This document shows, piece by piece, positions 3,119-15,752 of a stretch of 26,069 nucleotides of DNA. Location of the stretch: the NCBI GenBank assembly GCA_041483855.1, contig JBGPGM010000001.1:1-26069 (forward strand), given 5' to 3'. Source of the stretch: Phycisphaerae bacterium. GTDB taxonomy: Bacteria > Planctomycetota > Phycisphaerae > Phycisphaerales > UBA1924. The translations under genes and the position numbers were made by a program. The notes under the pieces were generated by a model. The model had not been told where the DNA came from. It ran no database searches and saw only the letters and a program-made list of their open reading frames with translations. Each line of letters begins with the position of its first letter. Position 1 is the first letter of the stretch.

Positions 3119-3617
3119 ACTGACCACGCGCGAGCGTCGCCAGCCATGCCTGCTTGACCGCCTGACGGACGATGAATCCAACGTCCAGCAAGAGAGCCGG
3201 GAGCGCCGCGTCATCTCCCTGGCGCAGCTGCGTAAGAGCGTCCTGCGCGACCTGTCCTGGCTGCTCAACACCAGCGCCCGTGCCGACGCCGAGGCCATCA
3301 ACGACTTCCCCCAGGTCGCCACGTCCGTGCTGAACTTCGGGATCCCCGACATGTGCGGGCTGACCGTGTCGAGCATCAGCGCCGTGGACGTCGAGCGGAT
3401 GGTGCTCGAGGCCATCCACCGCTTCGAGCCGCGCATCCTCCGCAAGAGCCTGACCGTCCGCGCCGTGTCCGACCACGAGAAGATGGCGGGCAACGCCGTG
3501 GCCTTCGAGATCAGCGGCATGCTCTGGGCCCAGCCTTTGCCCGAGCAGCTGTACGTCAAGACGGAAGTGGACCTGGAGACCGGCCAGTGCACCGTGGCGG
3601 AGCGCCCCAATGGATAG
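3111..3617 (+). CDS. tssE: T6SS baseplate subunit TssE (gp25-like)
   Basis: Start at ATG 3111 (GGAGGG upstream; 8-bp overlap with tagJ). Motifs PCLLDRLTDD, VLRDLSWLLNT, VLNFGIPD and IHRFEPRI. Confidence 0.95.
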   Translation: MAELTTRERRQPCLLDRLTDDESNVQQESRERRVISLAQLRKSVLRDLSWLLNTSARADAEAINDFPQVATSVLNFGIPDMCGLTVSSISAVDVERMVLEAIHRFEPRILRKSLTVRAVSDHEKMAGNAVAFEISGMLWAQPLPEQLYVKTEVDLETGQCTVAERPNG

Positions 3618-5490
3618 GCGGCTGCTCAGGTACTACAACCGCGAACTGCAGCACATCCGCGAGACCGCCGGCGAGTTCGCCAAGGAGTTCCCCAAGATCG
3701 CCGGCCGGCTCGGCATGGACGGCATGGAGTGCGCCGACCCGTACGTCGAGCGCCTGCTCGAGGGCTTCGCGTTTCTGGCCGCGCGCGTCCAGCTGAAGCT
3801 CGACGCCGAGTTCCCCCGGTTCACGCAGAGCCTGCTCGAGACCGTCTACCCGCACTACCTGGCCCCCACGCCCTCCATGGCCATCGCCCAGTTCAAGCCC
3901 GACCTGGCCGAGGGCAGCCTGGCCGAGGGGTTCGTGCTCAAGCGCGGCCGGGCCCTGCGGAGCACCATCGGCAAGGGCGACCTGACCGCCTGCGACTACC
4001 GTACCGCCCACGATGTCACCATGTTCCCGATCGAGGTGGCGTCCGCCGAGTACCACACCCGCGGGTTGGCCGCGCTGCAGGTCCCCGACATCCCCGGCGT
4101 CAAGGCCGGCATACGGCTGCGCCTCAAGAGCACGGCGGGCCTGACATTCGACAAGATCAAGATGGACCGGCTGGCCTTCTACCTGCACGGCACGGACGAG
4201 ACGCCGATGCGCGTCTATGAGCAGCTGGTGGCCCACACCCGCGCCGTCGTCGTCCAGCCCGTGCGCACCCCCGTCACCTGGCACGAGGTGGCCCCGGGGG
4301 AGGGGGGGGCCGTGCGCCGCCTGGGCTTCCGTGACGACGAGGCGATGCTGCCCTTCGGCGCCCGCTCCTTCCAGGGCTACCGCCTCCTGCACGAGTACTT
4401 CACGCTCCCCCAGCGCTTCCTGTTCGTGGAACTGACCGGCCTGTCCCGCGGCGCCCAGCGCTGCAAGGACACCGAACTGGACATCGTGATCCTGCTCAAG
4501 GAGGCCAACCTGGACCTGGAGAGCGGCTTCGGGCCCTCCATCTTCGTCCCGTTCTGCACGCCCGCCATCAACCTCTTCCACAAGCGCACCGACCGCATCC
4601 ACGTCACCGACCGCTTCAGCGAGTACCAGGTCATCGCGGACCGCACGCGCCCGCTCGACTTCGAGATCTACCAGGTCCTCAACGTCACCGGCTACGGCGA
4701 GGACTCCGAGACCATGCAGGAGTTCCTGCCGTTCTACGCGGCGCGAGACGTGGACCGAGACGGCAGCGGCAGCGGCGCGTACTTCGCCGTCAACCGCGTC
4801 CCCCGCACCCCGTCCAGCCGCGAGGTCCAGCAGGGCCGCCGCTCGTCGTACCCCGGCAGCGAGCTGTACGTCTCCCTGGTGGACGCCGCGGCCGCGCCGT
4901 TCCGCACCGACCTCCGCCAGTTGGGCGTCGAGGCGCTGTGCACGAACCGCGATCTGCCGCTGCGCATGCCGGTCGCGCGCGGGCGCACGGATTTCACCAT
5001 GGAGGAAGGCGCGCCGGTCGAGTCCGTCAAGTGCCTCTCCGGTCCCACGGTCCCGACGCCCTCGTACGCCGAGGGCGAGACCGCCTGGCGCGTCGTGAGC
5101 CACCTGGCCCTGAACTACCACTCGCTCATCGACGCCGACGCCGGGCAGGGCGCCACCGCACTCCGCGACATCCTCAAACTCTATGGCGACTCCGGTGAGG
5201 CCCACATCCGCAAGCAGATCGAAGGCACCAAGTCCATCTCGCACAAGCCCATCACCCGGCGCGCCGCCACGCCGGGCCCCATCGCCTTCGCGCGCGGCCT
5301 GGAGGTCACCGTGACCTTCGACGAGGCCGCCTTCGAGGGCACGGGCGTCTTCGTCCTTGGCGCTGTCCTCGAACAGTTCTTCGCCAAGTACGTGTCCCTC
5401 AACTCGTTCACCGAGACCGTCGTCCGCACGCTCGGTCGCGGGGAGATCATGCGATGGCCGGCGAGAGTGGGTCAGCGTCACATTATCTGA
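3610..5490 (+). CDS. tssF: T6SS baseplate subunit TssF
   Basis: LLRYYNRELQHIRE...EFAKEFPKIAGRL, DPYVERLLEGFAFL, YRLLHEYFTLPQRFLF and CTPAINLF. 626 aa; overlaps tssE and tssG. Confidence 0.97.
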   Translation: MDRRLLRYYNRELQHIRETAGEFAKEFPKIAGRLGMDGMECADPYVERLLEGFAFLAARVQLKLDAEFPRFTQSLLETVYPHYLAPTPSMAIAQFKPDLAEGSLAEGFVLKRGRALRSTIGKGDLTACDYRTAHDVTMFPIEVASAEYHTRGLAALQVPDIPGVKAGIRLRLKSTAGLTFDKIKMDRLAFYLHGTDETPMRVYEQLVAHTRAVVVQPVRTPVTWHEVAPGEGGAVRRLGFRDDEAMLPFGARSFQGYRLLHEYFTLPQRFLFVELTGLSRGAQRCKDTELDIVILLKEANLDLESGFGPSIFVPFCTPAINLFHKRTDRIHVTDRFSEYQVIADRTRPLDFEIYQVLNVTGYGEDSETMQEFLPFYAARDVDRDGSGSGAYFAVNRVPRTPSSREVQQGRRSSYPGSELYVSLVDAAAAPFRTDLRQLGVEALCTNRDLPLRMPVARGRTDFTMEEGAPVESVKCLSGPTVPTPSYAEGETAWRVVSHLALNYHSLIDADAGQGATALRDILKLYGDSGEAHIRKQIEGTKSISHKPITRRAATPGPIAFARGLEVTVTFDEAAFEGTGVFVLGAVLEQFFAKYVSLNSFTETVVRTLGRGEIMRWPARVGQRHII

Positions 5491-6530
5491 CGCAGGACCT
5501 CATCCAGAGACTCCACCAGTCTCCCTTCAGTTTCAACTTCTTCCAGGCCGTGCGCCGGCTCGAGTGCGCGGCCCCGGAGCGCCCGCGCGTCGGCTTCTCC
5601 CAGCGGCTGGCCGACGATCCCGTGCGTTTCTGCCAGGAGCCTTCGCTGGCATTCGCTCCCTCCACGATCTCCGCCGTCCGCCCGGCGGAGGGGGAGGTCG
5701 CGGCCCGGATGTTCGTCCAGTTCATGGGCATGCTGGGCCCCAACGGCCCCCTGCCCCTGCACCTGACCGAGTACATCCGCGACCGCGAGCGCAACCACGC
5801 CGACCCGACCCTCGCCCGCTTCCTGGACGTCTTCAACCACCGGATGGTCAGCCTCTTCTACCGCGCCTGGGCCGCCAGCCAGCAGGCCGTCAACTTCGAG
5901 CGTGGGCCCGCCGACCGCTTCGGCGTCTACTTCGCCAGCCTCTTCGGCTTGGGCATGGATTCCCTGCTCAAGCGCGACTCCGTCGCCGACGTGGCCAAGA
6001 TCCATTACTCCGGCCGGCTCGTCTGCCAGACGCGCCACGCCGAGGGCCTGCGCAGCATCATCCAGGACTACTTCGGCATCCCCACCGACATCCGCGAGTT
6101 CGTCGGTCAGTGGCTCGACTTGCCCTACGACTCCCGGTGCCGCCTGGCCGAAGGCCGCGCCACCGGCCTGATCGGCTTCACCGCCATCGTCGGTCAGCGC
6201 GTCTGGGACTGCCAGCAGAAGTTCAGGCTCACCCTCGGACCCATGCCCTACGCCGACTATGAACGCCTGCTCCCCGGCGGCGGGAGCATCCGGCGCCTGG
6301 CCGACTGGGTCGGCGACTATATTGGCCGCGAAATGGCCTGGGACCTGCACCTGATCCTCAAGGCCGACGAGGTGCCCGCCGTGAGTCTTGGTAGACTCGG
6401 CAGGCTCGGCTGGTCCACCTGGCTCAAGGCCGACCCCGCTCGGCCCTTCGCCAGGGACGCCGACGACCTGGTCCTTAGCCCCGGCTCCATCCAGCGGGCC
6501 GCACAAGCAGCAGTAAGCAGCAAGCAGTAA
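5454..6530 (+). CDS. tssG: T6SS baseplate subunit TssG
   Basis: FNFFQAVRRLE, PSLAFAPS, GMLGPNGPLPLHLTE, FLDVFNHRMVSLFYRAW and RFGVYFASLFGLG. Overlaps the tssF end as usual; exact start codon uncertain. Confidence 0.95.
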   Translation: MAGESGSASHYLTQDLIQRLHQSPFSFNFFQAVRRLECAAPERPRVGFSQRLADDPVRFCQEPSLAFAPSTISAVRPAEGEVAARMFVQFMGMLGPNGPLPLHLTEYIRDRERNHADPTLARFLDVFNHRMVSLFYRAWAASQQAVNFERGPADRFGVYFASLFGLGMDSLLKRDSVADVAKIHYSGRLVCQTRHAEGLRSIIQDYFGIPTDIREFVGQWLDLPYDSRCRLAEGRATGLIGFTAIVGQRVWDCQQKFRLTLGPMPYADYERLLPGGGSIRRLADWVGDYIGREMAWDLHLILKADEVPAVSLGRLGRLGWSTWLKADPARPFARDADDLVLSPGSIQRAAQAAVSSKQ

Positions 6531-6582: not shown

Positions 6583-9324
6583 ATGAGCGAGATCAGCCGT
6601 GTCAAACTGTTCGGCAAACTCAACAGCCTCGGGTACAGGTCCGTCGAGGGGGCGACGGTCTTCTGCAAGCTCCGCGGCAACCCGTACGTCGAGCTCGTGC
6701 ACGTTCTGCACCAGATCCTGCAAGTGCAGGAGTCCGACTTCCATCGCATCATCCGCCACTTCGAGTTGGACCCGGCCCGGCTCGCCGCGGACTTCACCGC
6801 GGCCCTGGACCGCCTGCCGCGCGGTGCCACGTCGATCTCCGACCTGTCGCCGCACCTGGAGGACTCGGTGGAGCGCGGCTGGGTCTACGGCTCGCTGATG
6901 TACGGCGACTCGCAGGTCCGGACCGGTCACCTCGTCCTGGGCATTCTCAAGACGCCGCCGCTCAAGCACGTCCTGCTGGGGATCTCCGGCCAGTTCGCCA
7001 AGATCAAGGAGGACGAACTGGCCGACGATTTCCACAAGATCGTCGCCGGCTCGCCGGAAGACGCTCTGCGGGCCACCGACGGCTCGATGGTTGGCGGCGG
7101 TGCCGGGGCCGCCCCCGGCGAGGCCAGCGGCGCCATGGCCCCCGCCCAGATGGGCAAGCAGGAGGCGCTGGGCAAGTACACGGTGGACCTGACGGACAAG
7201 GCCCGCAAGGGCGAGATCGACCCCATCGTTGGCCGCGACGAGGAGATCCGCCAGGCCGTTGACATCCTCATGCGCCGCCGCCAGAACAACCCCATCCTCA
7301 CCGGCGAGGCGGGCGTGGGCAAGACGGCCGTGGTCGAGGGCTTTGCCCTGCGCCTGGTCGCCGGCGACGTGCCCCCGGCCCTCAAGGACGTCGCTCTCAA
7401 GACCCTCGATCTGGGCTTGCTCCAGGCCGGCGCCAGCATGAAGGGCGAGTTCGAGAATCGCTTGCGCCAGGTCATCGAGGAGGTCCAGGCCTCCCCCAAG
7501 CCCATCATCCTCTTCATAGACGAGGCCCACCAGCTCATCGGCGCCGGCGGCGCCGCCGGCCAGGGCGATGCCGCCAACCTCCTCAAGCCCGCGCTGGCCC
7601 GCGGCACCCTGCGGACCATCGCCGCCACCACCGCCGCCGAATACCGCAAGTACTTCGAGAAGGACCCGGCCCTGACCCGCCGCTTCCAGGTCATCAAGAT
7701 CGACGAGCCCAGCGAGGCCAAGGCCCTGCTGATGATGCGCGGCATGGCCAGCACGCTCGAAAAGCACCATCGCGTGCAGATCCTGGACGAGGGCCTCGAG
7801 GCCGCGGTCAAACTCTCCCACCGCTACATCCCCGCGCGCCAACTGCCCGACAAGGCCGTCAGCCTGATCGACACCGCCTGCGCCCGCGTTGCCATCGGCC
7901 AGCACGCCGTCCCCGCCGAGGTGGACGACTGCCGCCGGCTCATCCAGGCCTTGCAGACGGAACTGGAGATCATCGACCGCGAGCAGGCCGTCGGCGTGGA
8001 CCACAACGCACGCCGGACCGAGACGATCGCCAGGCTTGACACCGAGCGCGCCCGCCTCAAGGACCTCGAACAGCACTGGGGCGACGAGAAGGAACTGGTC
8101 GCCAAGATCCTGGACATCCGCGCCAAGCTCCGCGGCGCGATCTCCCCGGTAGAGGGCACCGGCAGCAAGACCGAGGCCGCGGCCAAGGGTGAGGCCCCCC
8201 CGCCCGCCAAGATCGTGGAGCTGTCCGAGTCCCAGCGGGCGGCGTGCCTGGCGGAACTCAAGACGCTCCAGGGAAAGCTGACCCAGATGCAGGGCGACCG
8301 CCCGCTCATCCTCCCCAGCGTGGACGCCAGCGCGGTCTCCTCGGTCGTGGCGGACTGGACGGGCATCCCGGTGGGCCGGATGGTCAAGAACGAGGTCGAG
8401 TCGGTGCTGCAGCTGGCCGACACGCTCGAGAAGCGGATCATCGGCCAGCGTCACGCCCTGGACGCCATCGCCAAGCGCATCCGCACCAGCCGCGCAGGCC
8501 TGGACAACCCCGGCAAGCCCATCGGCGTGTTCATGTTCGCCGGCACGAGCGGCACGGGCAAGACGGAGACCGCCCTGGCCCTGGCCGAAACGCTCTACGG
8601 CGGCGAGCACAACGTCATCACCATCAACATGTCCGAATACCAGGAGGCGCACAAGGTCGCCACGCTCATGGGCTCGCCGCCGGGCTACGTCGGCTACGGC
8701 GATGGCGGCGTACTGACCGAGGCGGTGCGGCGCCGCCCCTACTCGGTCGTCCTGCTCGACGAGGTGGAGAAGGCCCACCCCGACGTGCACGAGATCTTCT
8801 TCCAGGTCTTCGACAAGGGGTTCATGAAGGACTCCGAAGGGCGCGACATCAACTTCAAGAACACGATCATCCTCCTGACCACCAACGCCGGGTCGGACCT
8901 GATCATGAACATGTGCAAGGACCCCGACCTCATGCCCGACCCGGACGGGATCGCCAAGGCCCTGCGCGAGCCCCTTCTCAAGATCTTCCCCGCCGCGCTG
9001 CTGGGCCGACTGGTCGTCATCCCGTTCTACCCCCTCAGCGACGACATGCTCAAGAACATCATCCGGCTCCAGCTGGGGCGGATCCAGAGGCGGGTCAAGC
9101 AGAACCAGAAGGTGCCCTTCACCTACGACGATGAGGTGGTCAAGCTGATCCTGAGCCGATGTACCGAGCGGGAGAGCGGCGGGCGCATGGTGGACGCCAT
9201 CCTCACGCACACGCTCCTGCCGGCCATCAGCACCGAGTACCTCAACCGCCTGCTCCAGGGCGGCCGGATCAACCGGGTCCACATCAGCGTCCACGACAGC
9301 GACTTCGCCTACGCCTTCGACTGA
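6583..9324 (+). CDS. clpV: T6SS AAA+ ATPase ClpV/TssH
   Basis: ClpV-type N-terminus (KLFGKLN...CKLRGNPYVELVH). Walker A GEAGVGKT and GTSGTGKT, Walker B LFIDEAH and LLDEVEKAH. C-terminal ESGGRMVDAILTHTLLP. Confidence 0.97.
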   Translation: MSEISRVKLFGKLNSLGYRSVEGATVFCKLRGNPYVELVHVLHQILQVQESDFHRIIRHFELDPARLAADFTAALDRLPRGATSISDLSPHLEDSVERGWVYGSLMYGDSQVRTGHLVLGILKTPPLKHVLLGISGQFAKIKEDELADDFHKIVAGSPEDALRATDGSMVGGGAGAAPGEASGAMAPAQMGKQEALGKYTVDLTDKARKGEIDPIVGRDEEIRQAVDILMRRRQNNPILTGEAGVGKTAVVEGFALRLVAGDVPPALKDVALKTLDLGLLQAGASMKGEFENRLRQVIEEVQASPKPIILFIDEAHQLIGAGGAAGQGDAANLLKPALARGTLRTIAATTAAEYRKYFEKDPALTRRFQVIKIDEPSEAKALLMMRGMASTLEKHHRVQILDEGLEAAVKLSHRYIPARQLPDKAVSLIDTACARVAIGQHAVPAEVDDCRRLIQALQTELEIIDREQAVGVDHNARRTETIARLDTERARLKDLEQHWGDEKELVAKILDIRAKLRGAISPVEGTGSKTEAAAKGEAPPPAKIVELSESQRAACLAELKTLQGKLTQMQGDRPLILPSVDASAVSSVVADWTGIPVGRMVKNEVESVLQLADTLEKRIIGQRHALDAIAKRIRTSRAGLDNPGKPIGVFMFAGTSGTGKTETALALAETLYGGEHNVITINMSEYQEAHKVATLMGSPPGYVGYGDGGVLTEAVRRRPYSVVLLDEVEKAHPDVHEIFFQVFDKGFMKDSEGRDINFKNTIILLTTNAGSDLIMNMCKDPDLMPDPDGIAKALREPLLKIFPAALLGRLVVIPFYPLSDDMLKNIIRLQLGRIQRRVKQNQKVPFTYDDEVVKLILSRCTERESGGRMVDAILTHTLLPAISTEYLNRLLQGGRINRVHISVHDSDFAYAFD

Positions 9325-9437: not shown

Positions 9438-9464
9438 GATCGGGCACCGCCGGGAGAGTCGCCA

Positions 9465-11570
9465 ATGCCCAGGACCCAGGAACACCGCGCTATCGCCATC
9501 GCGACGCCTCTCGACGACGACGTGCTCCTGCTGCGGAGCATGACCGCCCACGAGCAGCTCAGCCGCCTCTTCACGATCGAACTGGACCTGCTCAGCGAGG
9601 ACCACGAGATCAAGTTCGACGACCTGCTCGGCCAGAACTGCACCGTCCGGGTCCAGCAGCAGGGCGGCGGCACGCGCTTCTTCAACGGCTTCATCAGCCG
9701 CTTCGTCCAGACCACCAAGGGCGGCGGCATGGCCCTCTACCGCGCCACGCTCGTCCCCTGGCTGTGGATGCTGACCCGCAACGCCGACTGCCGCATCTTC
9801 CAGGAGATGACCGTCCCCGACATCATCAAGCAGGTCTTCCGCGACCACGGATTCTCCGACTTCGACGACACGCTGCAGGAGACCTACCGCAAGTGGGTCT
9901 ACTGCGTGCAGTACCGCGAGACGGACTTCAACTTCGTCAGCCGCCTGATGGAACAGGAGGGGATCTACTACTACTTTCGGCACGAGGACGGCAAGCACGT
10001 GATGGTGCTGTGCGACTCCTCCAGCAAGCACAAGGCCGCGCCCGGCTATGACAAGATTATCTACCGGCAGCCGGACAAGGTCCTCACCGACCGCGAGTTC
10101 ATCCACGACTGGTCCCACGAGCAGCAGGTCCGCACCGGCACCTACGTCCACCGCGACTTCAACTTCACCACCCCCAAGCAGAGCCTGGAGGCCAAGTCCA
10201 AGATCGACCGCAAGCACGCCGCGGCCTCCTTCGAGGTCTACGACTACCCGGGCGAGTACGACGTGGTCGCCGACGGCGAGAAAGCCGCCAAGGTCCGCAT
10301 CGAGGAGTTGCACACACAGTTCATCCAGGTGCGCGGCGAATCCGACTCGCGGGGTATCTCGGTTGGCTCCACCTTCCGGCTGGATCGGTACCCGCGCGCC
10401 GACCAGTGCGAGGTCGATTGGCTCGTGACGTCCACGGTCTGCCGGGCCCGCTCGGACGAGTTCGAGTCGCACGCCGCGGTGGGCGACTCGGCCCCGCGCT
10501 TCCTCTGTTCGTTCACCGTAATGGACAACAAGGAACAGTTCCGCCCCGCCCGCATCACACCCAAGCCCGTGATCTACGGCCCCCAGACCGCCTTTGTGGT
10601 CGGCAAGTCCGGCGAGGAGATCTGGACCGACGAGCACAGCCGCGTCAAGGTGCAGTTCCACTGGGACCGCGACGGCGAGGCCAACGAGAAGTCCTCGTGT
10701 TGGATCCGGGTCTCGCAGGCCTGGGCGGGCAAGAAGTGGGGGGCGATCTTCATCCCGAGGATCGGACACGAGGTGATCGTCGAGTTCCTCGAGGGCGACC
10801 CGGACCGGCCGATCATCACCGGCCGAGTCTACAACGCCGACACCAAGCCCCCCTACGACCTGCCCGCCCACGCGACGATGTCCACCCTCAAGTCGCTTAC
10901 GAGCAAGGGCGGCGGCGGTTTCAACGAGTTCCGCTTCGAGGACAAGAAGGGCGAGGAGCAGGTCTTCCTGCACGGCGAGAGGAACCTGGACATCCGCGTC
11001 AAGGCCGACCGCTTCGAGAACATCGGGCACGACCGCCACCTGGTCGTCGAGAACAAGAAGTTCGAGCACGTCAAGGTGGACCGGCACGAGAAGGTGGACA
11101 ACGACCACGTCGAGGTGATCGGCAACGACCGCAACCTCCAGGTCAAGGGCAAGGAAGCGATCGAGATCTCGGGCAGCCATTCCAACACCGTCGGCGGCGA
11201 CGTGATCGAGATCTTCAAGGCCAAGCACCACGAGGCGACAACCGCCGACTACTACCTCGTGGCGGACAACGTGGCCATCGAGGGCAAGACCAACATCACC
11301 CTGTACGTCGGCGACTCCTACATCGCCATCAACGCCGACGGCATCAAGATCGCCACGACCGGCAAGATCGTGCTCCAGTCCTCGGACGACACGTCGATCA
11401 AGTCCGACATGAACTTCAAGACCGAGTCCGGCATGGAGACCTCGGTGAAGGCCGGGACGGACCTGAAGCTCGAGGGCGGCGTCACCGCGGAGATGAAGTC
11501 CCCCAACACCACCGTCAAGGCGGACGCGACGCTCACGCTTAAGGGCAGCGCCTCCGTGATGATCAACTGA
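9465..11570 (+). CDS. vgrG: T6SS spike protein VgrG/TssI (gp27-gp5 core plus long beta-helix; no fused toxin domain)
   Basis: Start moved to ATG 9465. Motifs YCVQYRETDFNFVSRLMEQEGIYYYF, EIWTDEHSRVKVQFHWDR, CWIRVSQAWAG, IPRIGHEVIVEFLEGDPDRPIITGRVYN and NEFRFEDKKGEEQVFLHGERN. Ends in a repetitive beta-strand needle (...KGSASVMIN). Confidence 0.97.
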   Translation: MPRTQEHRAIAIATPLDDDVLLLRSMTAHEQLSRLFTIELDLLSEDHEIKFDDLLGQNCTVRVQQQGGGTRFFNGFISRFVQTTKGGGMALYRATLVPWLWMLTRNADCRIFQEMTVPDIIKQVFRDHGFSDFDDTLQETYRKWVYCVQYRETDFNFVSRLMEQEGIYYYFRHEDGKHVMVLCDSSSKHKAAPGYDKIIYRQPDKVLTDREFIHDWSHEQQVRTGTYVHRDFNFTTPKQSLEAKSKIDRKHAAASFEVYDYPGEYDVVADGEKAAKVRIEELHTQFIQVRGESDSRGISVGSTFRLDRYPRADQCEVDWLVTSTVCRARSDEFESHAAVGDSAPRFLCSFTVMDNKEQFRPARITPKPVIYGPQTAFVVGKSGEEIWTDEHSRVKVQFHWDRDGEANEKSSCWIRVSQAWAGKKWGAIFIPRIGHEVIVEFLEGDPDRPIITGRVYNADTKPPYDLPAHATMSTLKSLTSKGGGGFNEFRFEDKKGEEQVFLHGERNLDIRVKADRFENIGHDRHLVVENKKFEHVKVDRHEKVDNDHVEVIGNDRNLQVKGKEAIEISGSHSNTVGGDVIEIFKAKHHEATTADYYLVADNVAIEGKTNITLYVGDSYIAINADGIKIATTGKIVLQSSDDTSIKSDMNFKTESGMETSVKAGTDLKLEGGVTAEMKSPNTTVKADATLTLKGSASVMIN

Positions 11571-11590
11571 CCGTCGAGGATCCGCGACCC

Positions 11591-11980
11591 ATGGAGAAGA
11601 AGCCCGGAACAGCCCTGACCGCCGTCGCCCCCGCCGCGGTCACCGATGCGCTGGACGCCGACTCGGCCGACCCCGGCGAGGTGGCCGAGGTCAAGGCCGA
11701 GCAGCGCAAGAAGCAATCGGGCAAGTACGGCTCCAAGCAGGTCCCCGCCTACAAGCCGCCGGAGGACAAGGAAAAGAAGACGACGTGGATCGAGATCGAA
11801 CTGGTAGACCGCGACGGCAACCCGATCCCGAGCGAGCCCTACCGCATCGAGGACCCCGAGGGCCGCATCGTGGACGGAACGCTCGACGAGAAGGGATTCG
11901 CCCACCGGGACTGGATCGTCCCCGGCACCTGCAAGATCAGTTTCCCGAGGCTCGACCAGGACGCCTGGGCCAAGGCCTGA
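11591..11980 (+). CDS. Small vgrG-linked protein with C-terminal transthyretin/prealbumin-like beta domain (putative adaptor)
   Basis: SD GAGGA at 11576-11580; 20 bp after the vgrG stop; strong C/G-ending codons. Ala/Pro/Lys linker, then WIEIELVDRDGNPIPSEPYRIEDPEGRIVDGTLDEKG..GTCKISFP, the pattern of TTR-like/carboxypeptidase-regulatory-like domains. Confidence 0.75.
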   Translation: MEKKPGTALTAVAPAAVTDALDADSADPGEVAEVKAEQRKKQSGKYGSKQVPAYKPPEDKEKKTTWIEIELVDRDGNPIPSEPYRIEDPEGRIVDGTLDEKGFAHRDWIVPGTCKISFPRLDQDAWAKA

Positions 11981-12103: not shown

Positions 12104-12847
12104 ATGGCCGAGACCAAGAAGCCCAAGGACGACGTCAACAACAGCCCCGTCAACACGGGCATCGAGAACGACCTCGCCGACGAGAACGGGGAGTTCTACT
12201 ACTCCGCGCACGTGGTCAGCCAGGGCGAGTGCCTCATCCGGGTGTCCGCCGAGAACGGCTACTGGTGGGAGACTCTGTGGAACCACGCGGACAACGCCGA
12301 GCTGAAGAAGGGCCGGAAGAACCCCAACGTCCTGCTCCCGGAGGACCGCATCCGCGTGCCCAAGGTCCGGCTCAAGACCGAGGACGGCGCCACGGAACAG
12401 AAGCACAAGTTCAAGTGCAAGATCGAGCCGTCGATCCTGCGGCTGCGCGTCAGCGTCTTCGATGAGCCGCTCGCCAACAAGCCGTACAAGCTCGAGGTCG
12501 AGGGCAAACTGTACACCGGTACCACCAACGGCGACGGCCAGATCGAGCAGAAGGTCCCCTGCCGCGCCCGCGCCGGCCACCTGGTCGTCGGCGAGCCCCC
12601 CGAGGAGCGAGAGTACGACCTGCAGATCGGCGACCTGGACCCGCTCGACACGATCGCAGGCATCAAGGAGCGCCTCAACAACCTCGGCTACGCGGCCGGG
12701 CCCATCTGCGATTGGGACTATTTCAACAACTGGCCGGTCCCCGCCTTCCGCAAGGCCCTCCGCAAGTTCCAGCTCAACCACGACCTCAAGATCACCGGCA
12801 TCGTCGACAAGATGACCAAGGACGCCCTCCTCAAGACCGGCATCTGA
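12104..12847 (+). CDS. LysM-like + TTR-like + peptidoglycan-binding (PG_binding_1-like) protein, no signal peptide
   Basis: LysM-like HVVSQGECLIRVSAENG...LWNHADNAELKKGRKNPNVLLPEDRIRVP (about 12209-12361). Beta domain LRLRV..DEPLANKPYKLEVEG...GTTNGDG (about 12434-12625). PGBD-like IKERLNNLGY...ALRKFQLNHDLKITGIVDKMT (about 12638-12835). Confidence 0.8.
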   Translation: MAETKKPKDDVNNSPVNTGIENDLADENGEFYYSAHVVSQGECLIRVSAENGYWWETLWNHADNAELKKGRKNPNVLLPEDRIRVPKVRLKTEDGATEQKHKFKCKIEPSILRLRVSVFDEPLANKPYKLEVEGKLYTGTTNGDGQIEQKVPCRARAGHLVVGEPPEEREYDLQIGDLDPLDTIAGIKERLNNLGYAAGPICDWDYFNNWPVPAFRKALRKFQLNHDLKITGIVDKMTKDALLKTGI

Positions 12848-12890
12848 GCCGGTGCCCGTCCCCTCCCCTCCCTGTCCGCGGAGCCCCTGT

Positions 12891-15752
12891 ATGCTCGCAC
12901 GCGTTGCCAAGAACGACTACGACAACGAGAACGGCAAGACGTTCACTCCCCTGGACCGGCAGAGCTACCTGCCGATCGTGGATGCGCACTGCCACGTCTT
13001 CGGCCAGAGCCTCTCCGTCGGCGACAAGATCCGGGACGACTCCGACGCGACCCACGTGACGTTCATCAAGGGCGGCTCGGGCGGCTCGGTCAAGAAGCTC
13101 TTCAAGCCCACTGTCCTGATCAAGAAGCCCCCGACCCAGGTCCAGAGCCTCGTCGGCGACGCCAAGTCCCTGGCGGACAAGGCCCCGCCCGGCCTCATGG
13201 ACAAGGCCAAGGGCGCCGCGTCTTCTTTCCTCTCCTCCGCCGGCAAGGCGATGCCCAGCGTGAAGAAGGAGGACCTCGAGAAGGCGCAGAGCGTCGCCAA
13301 GGAGTTCGCCGACCGTCAGATCGGCGAGGTCCTCCAGAAGGTATACGCCCGCGGCGTCATCGAACTCCCACCGTCGGAGTGGCCGCCGCAGGCCACCACC
13401 ACGCTGGTCGGCGACCGCGTGTTCTTCGTCGTGATGCTCTCGGAACGCGCCAAGATCCATTCCTACGGGATCGGCTCCGAGAAGGCGGACCTCACCGAGA
13501 TCGCCTGGCTGGTCGGCCACATGGAGGCCGGGTTCGCCAAGTTCATCAAGTACTTCTTCGGTGATGACGGCGAGAACGCCGGCATCGTCCTCAACGGCGT
13601 GCCCAAGGAGGGAGGGACCGCCGTCGTCCCCCTCCTCCTGGACATGGGCTACACGCCGCTGGACGTCCCGCTGCCGCTGTTGGGCACGCTGGCCGCGTGG
13701 CTCGTCGGCCTGCCCAAGCCCGCGCCGGACCCGGACGGCTACTACAAGGCCGGCAAGGAGTTCCTCTGGTTCGACCGCAAGGGGCTCCAGTACACCTACG
13801 AGACGCTGGCCGACGTCGCCAGTCAGTACCCCTACCAGATCTGGCCGATGGTCCCCTTTGACCCGCGCCGGCCCGACGCGCTGAGCCACGTGAAGAAGGC
13901 TGTCAACGAGTTCGCCTTCCCCGGCGTCAAGCTCTACTCCCGCTGCGGCTGGGCACCCTACAACAACGCCGACGTCCACGGCCCCACGCACGGGCCCAAG
14001 CTCGATCAGCGCCTCGACGCCTTCTATGCCTACGCCGTTCAGGAAGACCTGCCCGTTCTCAACCACACCAGCCCGACGGGTTTCCCGCCCAACGCGGCCC
14101 TGGCCCTGCCCAAGGGCTATGACGGAGCGGATATGTACCACAGCCGCCTGCTCTACCCCGGGCGCGTCGGGATCGGACCGCTGCCGCTGGGGGCTCTGGA
14201 GGGGATCCTCAAGGACGTCGGGCAAGGAATGCTCGATGTCGCCGGGCTCCCGCCTCCCGAGGAACTGCTCAAGCAGGCCAAGGCCACGGGCTCGAAGATG
14301 CTCCAGGACGTGGGCGACCTGGCCAACCAGGCCAAGGATTTGAGCCAGGAGCACTTCGACTCCCTCGTGAGCGCGCTGGACAAGGCCCGGGCCAAGGGGC
14401 CGGCCGAGATCGAGCGACTCACCAGCCTCGCCGATCCCTCCAAACTCTCCGTGCAGGCCGTCCGCGACCAGCTCTCCGAGTACATTGCTCCCGAAACGCT
14501 CAGCAAGATCGCCGACAAGTTCAACCCCAAGCAGTTTTTCGGCCTCGCGTCCTGCATCAAGGGCCCGGACTTCCATCCCGTCAAGAACATGATCGACCCG
14601 CAGAAGCAGAAGGAGAACGCCGCCATCAACGCCGAGCAGCGCCGCAGCCCGCTCAAGGTCCTCTTCGACGCCTGCTGCAAGATCCTGGCCTTGATGTCGT
14701 GCTACGACGCGGCCAAGTACTGCCACTACGTCCAGCACACCGTCTCGCCCTACGCCTGGGAACCCGTCCTCAAGAAGTACCCCAAGCTCCGCCTCGACCT
14801 GGCCCACTGCGGGTCCGAGAAGAGCGTGATCACCCACTATGGCCTGGACAAGGACGAGCACGAAATCGGCAAGAATCCTACCGCCGCGGCCAAGAAGACG
14901 TGCGACGTCCTCAAGGATCAGATCAAGGACCTGCACGCGAACCCGTTCGTCGCCACCGGCGCACGCTTCAAGGACTACCTTTTCGCCCAGTGCGCCAAGG
15001 AACGCGGCATCATCGCCCTCTTCCAATACTTCGTTACCAGCGAGGCCACCATCGACCCCGCCAAGAAGGCCGCGGATAAGGTCACCGAGATGCTCATGAA
15101 GGTCCTGCCCGCGGTCTTCGCCAAGGTGCTCAAGCAGTTCACTCTCCAGCAGATCTACGATGGCGTGCGGGTCCAGGTGCCGGAGGTCCTCAAGGAAGAG
15201 CTGTGGCAGCAGTGGCTGGAGGACTGGGCCGACAAGTTCCCCAAGGACTGGATCACCAAGATCAAGGAACTGTGCGGCAAGTACGACAACGTCTATACGG
15301 ACATCTCCTACCTGACGGGCACCAGCAACGATGTCCACAAGCTACTGCTCGCCAAGATCGCCGACGATGCTTGCCCCGACACGCATCGGCGCGAGGGGTC
15401 CGACGCCGGCGTGGAAGACGAGAGCACCGACGGCTCCACCAAGGAGACCATCTTCGCCGAGCGACTCATGATCGGCACCGACTGGTACATGACCGCCATG
15501 GACAATGTCGGCCCCGACACTTTCTGGGAGCGCACCAAGTCCGTCGTCAACACCGACCACCCGCTCTGGGAGCGCTGGGCCAGCCGCAACTGCATCAACT
15601 TCATGAATCTCGGCAAGCGGATGGACGCGATGGAGAAGTGGTACAAGACCCGCAACATCCCTGACTCCAGCCGTCCCTCCTGGTGGCCAGCCGTCAAGCA
15701 CTACTACAAGGTCAAGGAGGAGAAGGGCGCCGCGGCCGCGGCCAAGGTTTGA
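12891..15752 (+). CDS. Very large amidohydrolase-superfamily (Amidohydro_2-like) protein with multiple insertions; putative T6SS cargo effector
   Basis: Start moved to ATG 12891 (GGAG upstream). Motifs in canonical order: IVDAHCH (HxH at 12987-12995), PFDPRR, GVKLY (13923), PVLNH (H at 14064), KYPKLRLDLAHCG (H at 14805), NVYTDISY (15288) and LMIGTDWY (D at 15480). 953 aa. The effector role is inferred from position only. Confidence 0.8.
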   Translation: MLARVAKNDYDNENGKTFTPLDRQSYLPIVDAHCHVFGQSLSVGDKIRDDSDATHVTFIKGGSGGSVKKLFKPTVLIKKPPTQVQSLVGDAKSLADKAPPGLMDKAKGAASSFLSSAGKAMPSVKKEDLEKAQSVAKEFADRQIGEVLQKVYARGVIELPPSEWPPQATTTLVGDRVFFVVMLSERAKIHSYGIGSEKADLTEIAWLVGHMEAGFAKFIKYFFGDDGENAGIVLNGVPKEGGTAVVPLLLDMGYTPLDVPLPLLGTLAAWLVGLPKPAPDPDGYYKAGKEFLWFDRKGLQYTYETLADVASQYPYQIWPMVPFDPRRPDALSHVKKAVNEFAFPGVKLYSRCGWAPYNNADVHGPTHGPKLDQRLDAFYAYAVQEDLPVLNHTSPTGFPPNAALALPKGYDGADMYHSRLLYPGRVGIGPLPLGALEGILKDVGQGMLDVAGLPPPEELLKQAKATGSKMLQDVGDLANQAKDLSQEHFDSLVSALDKARAKGPAEIERLTSLADPSKLSVQAVRDQLSEYIAPETLSKIADKFNPKQFFGLASCIKGPDFHPVKNMIDPQKQKENAAINAEQRRSPLKVLFDACCKILALMSCYDAAKYCHYVQHTVSPYAWEPVLKKYPKLRLDLAHCGSEKSVITHYGLDKDEHEIGKNPTAAAKKTCDVLKDQIKDLHANPFVATGARFKDYLFAQCAKERGIIALFQYFVTSEATIDPAKKAADKVTEMLMKVLPAVFAKVLKQFTLQQIYDGVRVQVPEVLKEELWQQWLEDWADKFPKDWITKIKELCGKYDNVYTDISYLTGTSNDVHKLLLAKIADDACPDTHRREGSDAGVEDESTDGSTKETIFAERLMIGTDWYMTAMDNVGPDTFWERTKSVVNTDHPLWERWASRNCINFMNLGKRMDAMEKWYKTRNIPDSSRPSWWPAVKHYYKVKEEKGAAAAAKV

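Follow-up and report, generated by a model that had tools for sequence, protein, structure and literature searches.

A short open reading frame (ORF) directly behind vgrG, the gene of the spike protein of a type VI secretion system (T6SS), raises the question of whether it encodes an independent protein or a detached part of the spike itself. The locus lies in a stretch of 26,069 nucleotides from a Phycisphaerae bacterium (assembly GCA_041483855.1, contig JBGPGM010000001.1, positions 1 to 26,069 of the forward strand), hereafter called the window. Its vgrG gene (9459..11570, plus strand) encodes a protein of 703 aa, which matches TIGR03361 (E 5.7e-201) and includes the Phage_GPD, Phage_base_V and Gp5_trimer_C domains. 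The reading frame runs from the ATG at 9459 to the TGA at 11568-11570, and the protein terminates in ...GSASVMIN, with no C-terminal extension after VMIN. Direct reading of the following spacer of 20 nt (11571..11590, plus strand) revealed a GAGGA Shine-Dalgarno (SD) sequence at 11576-11580, located 10 nt 5′ of the ATG at 11591 of a second ORF (11591-11980). This ORF, here called the tail gene, encodes 129 aa beginning with MEKKPGTALTAVAPAAVTDALDADSADPGEV and is read in frame -1 with respect to vgrG (9459 mod 3 = 0; 11591 mod 3 = 2).

The original prediction, made from the letters of the window, had described this arrangement of a vgrG ending in ...VMIN and, 20 nt on, an ORF in another frame with its own SD, and every element of it was confirmed by direct reading. 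The tail protein is homologous along its entire length with the C-terminal extension of other VgrGs, the break falls after ...IN, and the tail gene, which has its own SD and ATG, opens a recurring cassette. The explanation considered moderately probable as a whole is that the tail is a separately translated, stand-alone VgrG extension, which would have arisen by fission, would dock on the spike and would allow several cassettes to share it.

A conserved and unnamed gene family

The 129-aa ORF is a genuine conserved gene, widespread and unnamed. A word-indexed search returned 524 homologues at E <= 1e-3; among those listed the identity to the query was 53-63%, and nearly all were 123-137 aa long, one being 170 aa. 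The labelled ones originate from metagenome-assembled genomes (MAGs) of Verrucomicrobiota, Planctomycetota and Thermodesulfobacteriota, and the stand-alone family of about 130 aa comprises more than 500 clusters from at least six phyla. Thirty of the word-search homologues were aligned (alignment A1) and served as the basis of the family profile. The residues invariant in A1 are G6, P14, the A-D-x-A-D-P-G block and Y46-G47 in the N-terminal half, and W66, E68, G96, L98, G102, G112, F118 and W126 in the C-terminal half. Together with the junction alignment described below, A1 defines the N-terminal motifs KSG.AG..V.P..P, AD.ADPGE and KAEQ...GKYGS.

The median dN/dS of the tail was 0.40 (0.45 in the N-terminal and 0.33 in the C-terminal half), a value to be read as an upper bound that supports "below 1" at most, dS being saturated in most pairs. 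The scan of the 129-aa protein against Pfam and NCBIfam gave no family above threshold and no match to the DUF4123, DUF1795, DUF2169 or PAAR profiles, and the ESM Atlas returned only "hypothetical protein" clusters as neighbours. Some free tails (P0150, P0168, P0186) carry long Gly/Ser/Tyr-rich low-complexity extensions.

Correspondence with the C-terminal extension of VgrG

The comparison of the A1 profile with 1.84 billion representative sequences gave 5084 matching proteins. The top 150 representatives included about 30 stand-alone clusters and at least 11 fused ones, the latter consisting of 769-801-aa proteins whose last ~130 aa match profile positions 3-133 of 133 with E values of 1e-34 to 1e-49. 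All ten long profile matches that were scanned proved to be complete VgrGs.

The junctions correspond at the level of single residues. The fused proteins pass from the needle into the tail with the consensus ...IN-SGPGSPAGSGSAGS.V.P...ADxADPGE, or spelled out V-x-I-N-S-G-P-G-S-P-A-G-S-G-S-A-G-S-x-V-x-P...A-D-x-A-D-P-G-E. At the split loci ...V-x-I-N is followed by a stop codon, a spacer and an SD, after which the tail begins with M.PKSG.AGS.V.P...ADxADPGE, the start being M-(P/G/N)-(S/K)-(P/K)-K-S-G-x-A-G-S-x-V-x-P...A-D-x-A-D-P-G-E. The spacers are mostly 8-20 nt long, and an SD of the AGGA/GGAG type is present in 14 of the 17 junctions printed, that of the window included. This residue-for-residue match indicates that the cut lies exactly at the end of the needle, inside the Gly/Ser/Pro linker of the fused form. 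The N-terminal half of the tail (aa 1-64; 11591..11782, plus strand) equals the Gly/Ser/Pro/Ala linker of the fused VgrGs and is the proposed spike-docking segment. The C-terminal half (aa 65-129 and the stop codon; 11783..11980, plus strand) is a prealbumin- or transthyretin (TTR)-like β-sandwich, proposed to bind the cargo or an adaptor.

Seventy-nine loci were taken from species-representative genomes and classified by script. The tail was found fused, within the vgrG frame, at 30 loci and split, as its own ORF just 3′ of vgrG, in 47 entries; removal of duplicates from these left about 40 distinct loci. A further 18 entries are orphan tails, lying farther off or with no vgrG within reach. 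The order vgrG-tail occurs in Planctomycetota, Verrucomicrobiota, Thermodesulfobacteriota, Nitrospirota and Gammaproteobacteria, and the split form is present in an isolate, Desulfospira joergensenii DSM 10085 (L024). Within the taxonomic family of the window the tail was detected in 8 of 24 genomes; it is fused in two of these, with open frames of 834 and 811 aa, and free in the others.

The homology of the tail gene to the VgrG C-terminal extension is strongly supported by these comparisons. The original prediction had claimed a resemblance to the last ~130 aa of full-length VgrGs, and the profile matches, the ten confirmed VgrGs and the junctions all agree with it; the sequence of linker, A-D motif and TTR-like domain after the IN of the needle, which it had given as a pattern of many VgrGs, was seen in the alignments of the fused proteins, and the same split recurs in the ~40 distinct loci.

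Separate translation of the tail

An assembly indel in the window, or a broken vgrG followed by a non-functional remnant, would give a similar picture. The source genome is a fragmented MAG (502 contigs, 59% complete), and in the related Thermodesulfobacteriota MAG GCA_049323655.1 (L005/L015, 3682-5987) vgrG is called as two ORFs of 512 and 222 aa. The latter break is probably a frameshift error of that MAG, since two Logan contigs (L006, L007) carry the identical tail behind an intact vgrG of 692 aa. For the window itself, three additional sediment-metagenome runs yielded Logan contigs covering 11317-11723, 11562-11797 and 11511-11661, in which neither a difference nor a gap was found. These are low-depth contigs rather than raw reads, and they contain no indel at 11560-11595, the interval in which the original prediction had advised looking for one. 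An assembly indel and a chance ORF were rejected in view of these identical independent contigs and of the ~40 other split loci. A decaying remnant is hardly compatible with hundreds of intact homologues of ~130 aa that are 50-63% identical and share invariant residues in both halves, with a dN/dS below 1 and with the tail's own SD and ATG, and an artefact of either kind is given a negligible chance.

Alternatively, one fused protein might still be made by -1 frameshifting or stop-codon readthrough at the end of vgrG. The frame relation of the window would permit a shift, the tail frame being -1 with respect to vgrG and open upstream, and about 20 split entries have the tail in frame behind a single stop. 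The upstream opening extends over only 16 codons, a TAA at 11540-11542 closing it, so that the two frames overlap by 25 nt, and no slippery heptamer was found in 11543-11570. Among the split loci every frame offset (0, 1 and 2) is represented, with spacers from 8 to 369 nt, and orphan tails lie kilobases from any vgrG; together with the SD and ATG at most of the printed junctions, this makes production of a fused protein very improbable. Programmed frameshifting and readthrough were accordingly rejected for want of a slippery site and for the variability of frames and spacers, and the original prediction had been right to exclude simple readthrough from the difference in frames.

Fold of the tail

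The AlphaFold2 (AF2) model of the tail protein, computed with A1, showed a β-sandwich for residues 65-129 with a predicted local distance difference test (pLDDT) score of 85-90. The top Foldseek match in the PDB was 6sjl_A, the VgrG spike of enteroaggregative Escherichia coli (EAEC) bound to Tle1, with E 2e-3 and 25% identity over 67 columns, followed by prealbumin-like domains of the CnaB, SpyCatcher and pilin type. When the profile was compared with the PDB, its best match was again 6sjl_A, at residues 783-833 near the C-terminus of the chain, with a weak E of 0.17. Moreover, relatives with tandem repeats of the module match the CarboxypepD_reg and SpaA models, both described as having a prealbumin-like fold. 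The designation TTR-like, already used in the original prediction, agrees with the model, the Foldseek matches and the repeat-bearing relatives and is moderately supported as a statement about the modelled fold; direct homology to the EAEC tail is unproven.

The module of ~65 aa also exists by itself, in tandem arrays of up to 19 copies within proteins of up to 3562 aa (P0121-P0132, P0183, P0207, P0250). Several of these have DNA_circ_N (Mu gp43-like), Dit-like or Phage_tube N-termini and resemble hub proteins of phage tails or contractile systems. The genome of the window also encodes a 420-aa protein (L002, 700-1962, minus strand; contig C14 of G000), truncated N-terminally by the contig end, in which one tail-like β-module (E 3e-5) precedes a LysM-like stretch and the C-terminus is acidic.

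The cassette headed by the tail

The tail gene is followed by a partner gene of 247 aa (12104..12847, plus strand). The AF2 model of its product comprises a β-α-α-β unit at 33-86, which is LysM-like, a TTR-like sandwich at 110-174 and a helical domain at 184-245, PG_binding_1 being matched by PF01471 with E 2.3e-7. The sandwich is itself related to that of the tail according to hhalign (81% probability, E 1.2e-5). The third gene (12852..15752, plus strand) is large and variable and encodes a putative cargo effector of 966 aa, counted from the first GTG, the true start being uncertain. It matches PF04909 (Amidohydro_2) with E 1.5e-6, weakly and in part, over residues 317-413 only. In other cassettes the third gene encodes proteins of unrelated size (362-799 aa).

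A homologue of the LysM partner lies directly 3′ of 67 of the 95 tails, namely behind 50 of the 65 free and 17 of the 30 fused ones. Some of the tails lacking it are followed by DUF4280 and DUF6931 genes or by nothing; thus L003/L004 (6458-7624) has a free tail, then DUF4280 (PAAR-like) and DUF6931, with no LysM cassette. The replacement of LysM by DUF4280/DUF6931 at some loci suggests that the tail is tied more tightly to vgrG than to any type of cargo.

The tail, or the whole unit of tail, LysM gene and large gene, occurs in two or three copies behind a single vgrG at six loci (L010, L012, L013, L027, L044 and L057, the last from the MAG Phycisphaerae HBSAPP03), and repeated tails were also seen in the relatives G003 (three, ~3.5 kb apart; contig C16, 80136-87423) and G009. 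In such an array most tails head a LysM/PG_binding_1 gene of their own and a large gene that differs from unit to unit, and at L010 two tail genes stand directly in tandem (3172-3576 and 3580-3975). These arrays of cargo cassettes headed by a tail, and the succession of tail, LysM partner and large variable protein on which they are built, are features new here.

A search for natural fusions of tail and LysM protein, as Rosetta-stone evidence, found none. The candidate P0212 (339 aa) was rejected, its C-terminal domain being a different one without similarity to the LysM protein. It consists of a free tail with ~200 unannotated residues past the TTR module, possibly a toxin.

The MAG of the window has one VgrG, no PAAR_motif match and one DUF4280 protein (contig C239), which at 59% completeness does not establish the absence of others. 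In the window's order the T6SS is patchily distributed, with a VgrG match in just 8 of the 81 genomes searched, the MAG of the window counted.

Signals bearing on docking

Where one locus has several paralogous tails, these resemble each other more closely in the N-terminal part than in the TTR domain. Residues 1-50 are on average 71.5% identical as against 58.3% for the domain, and N exceeds C in all 8 pairs and at all 6 loci. The relation is reversed between loci (53.1% versus 59.1%), with N above C in only 23% of the pairs, and the excess seen within loci is reached by 1.9% of the between-locus pairs. Such an N-terminal likeness would be expected if the tails of a locus had a partner in common that is specific to that locus, for instance the single VgrG. 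The motif KAEQ...GKYGS is conserved to at least 80% in free tails and not in fused ones. The needle, measured from the GRVYN motif to the end, has a median length of 232 aa (185-266) in split and 186 aa (168-194) in fused VgrGs, and with 249 aa that of the window is longer than the needles of its fused relatives. VgrGs with a detached tail thus have needles longer by ~25-70 residues, and the additional rungs might offer a docking surface.

From these signals the following arrangement is proposed. Three copies of the tail would be held non-covalently at the tip region of the VgrG trimer by their conserved N-terminal ~50 residues; the TTR-like domain would hold the LysM-type adaptor, and the adaptor in turn the large effector. 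No longer being part of VgrG, the tail would permit several cassettes, each with its own tail, to share one spike. That the free tail is an exchangeable adaptor docking non-covalently on VgrG is a well-motivated hypothesis, drawing on the cassette arrays and on the N-terminal likeness within loci. It is tempting to speculate further, and we do so tentatively, that the N-terminal ~50 residues act as a portable docking tag and that tail-LysM-effector cassettes compete for three positions on one VgrG trimer; this is possible, if somewhat short of an even chance. One spike gene could then fire mixed or alternating sets of cargo, unlike the rule of one VgrG per effector.

Direction of the change

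A tree of the VgrG cores of 58 complete proteins showed seven changes between the fused and split states, at least four of them on well-supported branches. For rooting, VgrGs of the window's order were added, three without a tail serving as the outgroup. In the rooted tree the tail-bearing VgrGs form one clade (support 94), at the base of which stand two purely fused lineages, a fused-dominated clade (18 fused, 4 split) and a split-dominated clade (31 split, 5 fused). The VgrG of the window falls into the latter, whose first subclade is fused. In all, five to nine changes were counted, at least five on well-supported branches. L019 and L043, although fused, sit on short branches within a split clade and, judging from this position, are probable re-fusions.

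Parsimony favours a fused ancestor and repeated fission as the likely course, so that the split state would have arisen by fission of a fused ancestor, with fission and re-fusion recurring. The gene fission assumed in the original prediction is favoured by the outgroup-rooted tree; the direction is not proven, and the state flipped at least five times. The opposite course, in which the tail was a stand-alone gene from the start and became joined to VgrG by repeated gene fusion, agrees with the number of changes, with the nesting of L019 and L043 and with the early branching of the split L025, L053 and L024 in the fused-dominated clade. It is rather unlikely all the same, considering that, in the tree rooted on tail-less VgrGs, two basal lineages out of four contain fused forms only, that the split-dominated group also begins with a fused subclade, and that elsewhere VgrG as a rule carries its C-terminal extension in fused form (PMC6684961).

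Function of the free tail

If the tail is translated by itself, it need not act on the spike. It might serve in the cytosol as a chaperone or co-adaptor for the LysM protein or the effector before loading, the contact with VgrG being made by the LysM protein. In Ketobacter a LysM protein sufficed on its own to link VgrG with its effector in co-immunoprecipitation (PMC10673891); the tail and the LysM protein have related TTR-like modules that could pair, and the TTR tails of VgrG4b and VgrG5 were described as chaperoning their effectors (PMC6684961). In the fused relatives, however, the same module sits on the spike by construction, the free form retains, and conserves more strongly, a linker segment that a soluble chaperone would not need, and the N-termini follow the locus and not the cargo; a role away from the spike is for these reasons unlikely. 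A structural element of the tip, associated with PAAR or stabilising the spike, would account for the PAAR-like DUF4280 and the DUF6931 genes that replace the LysM cassette next to some tails, and for the occurrence of the β-module in hub-like phage-tail proteins with DNA_circ_N or Dit-like N-termini. Several divergent tail paralogues at one locus, each heading a different large gene, fit the selection of cargo better, and the TTR tails characterised so far bind effectors (PMC6684961), which leaves a cap or tip function improbable.

The preferred reading, a stand-alone VgrG extension that docks on the spike as a cargo adaptor, has to be held against several of the observations. The partner is not universal, 28 of the 95 tails having no LysM gene next to them, and the excess of loci with several tails among the split ones is not significant (6/48 versus 0/30, p = 0.077). 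The role of the 966-aa protein as an effector, read from its sequence and position, is unproven. The N-terminal ~60 residues, which would have to dock, were modelled alone with low confidence (pLDDT 53-60, with a helix at 28-41), and the likeness of the sandwich to the EAEC TTR domain is weak both structurally and at the profile level (25% identity; E 2e-3 and E 0.17). The higher N-terminal identity within six loci could stem from gene conversion or recent partial duplication, and the weaker conservation of the fused linker may be due to the fused set being phylogenetically more diverse. The polarity of the tree is soft, given weakly resolved basal forks, two early split branches in the fused-dominated clade and a sampling biased towards loci with a tail.

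Relation to known systems

The TTR-like C-termini of VgrG4b and VgrG5 specify the effectors PldA and PldB and can be swapped (PMC6684961). The TTR tails of EAEC VgrG1-Tle1 (6SJL/6SK0) and of Pseudomonas aeruginosa VgrG4b-PldA and VgrG5-PldB resemble the present tail in starting where the gp5-like needle ends, near residue 650, in the combination of a linker with a prealbumin/TTR-like sandwich of ~65 aa, and in the covalent fusion to VgrG, which is found in close homologues of the window's tail. They differ in that the tail of the window is not continuous with the needle, being separated from it by the TGA, 20 nt and a change of frame, in that no DUF2345 domain lies between needle and tail here beyond a partial match below threshold, and in that the gene directly downstream encodes a LysM/PG_binding_1 protein instead of an effector.

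Six domain families, DUF2345, FIX-like, LysM, gp5, PG_binding_1 and PHA00368, were described in a survey (Commun Biol 2023, PMC10673891) as fused to the VgrG C-terminus or the toxin N-terminus or as standing alone, and the stand-alone LysM protein of Ketobacter was required there for the binding of VgrG to the effector in co-immunoprecipitation. These families, with MIX in addition, share with the tail the use of one module either fused or alone, between vgrG and a downstream putative toxin, and the partner gene of the window carries two of them (LysM and PG_binding_1). The tail family is not among these six, and the passages of the survey that were consulted make no mention of arrays of tail-LysM-cargo cassettes. 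With no Pfam, CDD or NCBIfam model for the tail family, a domain-based scan such as the one reported there could not detect it. The concept of a VgrG adaptor that is either fused or stand-alone is already published and is less new than the original prediction implied. New here is an unannotated, widespread tail family as such a module, together with its cassette arrays.

The small accessory proteins with DUF4123 (Tap/Tec), DUF1795 (Eag) and DUF2169 (TvpA; PMC13373197) likewise have their genes placed between vgrG and that of a cargo effector, and a role in connecting cargo and spike has been proposed for them. They are classical adaptors or chaperones that are not secreted and have no relation to the tail in sequence or fold, whereas the tail is derived from, or interchangeable with, a part of VgrG and would therefore be expected to travel with the spike.

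VgrG TTR tails decide the cargo of the spike and have been swapped by experiment to redirect it; the tail family presents a natural swap in trans. Should non-covalent docking prove true, it would mean a new spike-adaptor interface, would explain how cargo is diversified with a single vgrG, as in the MAG of the window, and would offer a small tag for loading engineered cargo. In annotation, the tail can also help to recognise T6SS cargo islands in Planctomycetota, Verrucomicrobiota and Acidobacteriota. To our knowledge, no functionally characterised T6SS has been described in these three phyla.

Neighbouring genes and a further locus

Upstream of vgrG the T6SS cluster of the window includes tssC (3-1475), tssF (3610-5490), tssG (5454-6530) and clpV (6583-9324). 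Among the loci collected, L046 (JAIWHJ010000086.1, 6.8 kb, coverage 0.37) has a vgrG and a free tail and was binned into a MAG named "Promethearchaeota archaeon"; the pair most likely represents binning contamination rather than an archaeal T6SS.

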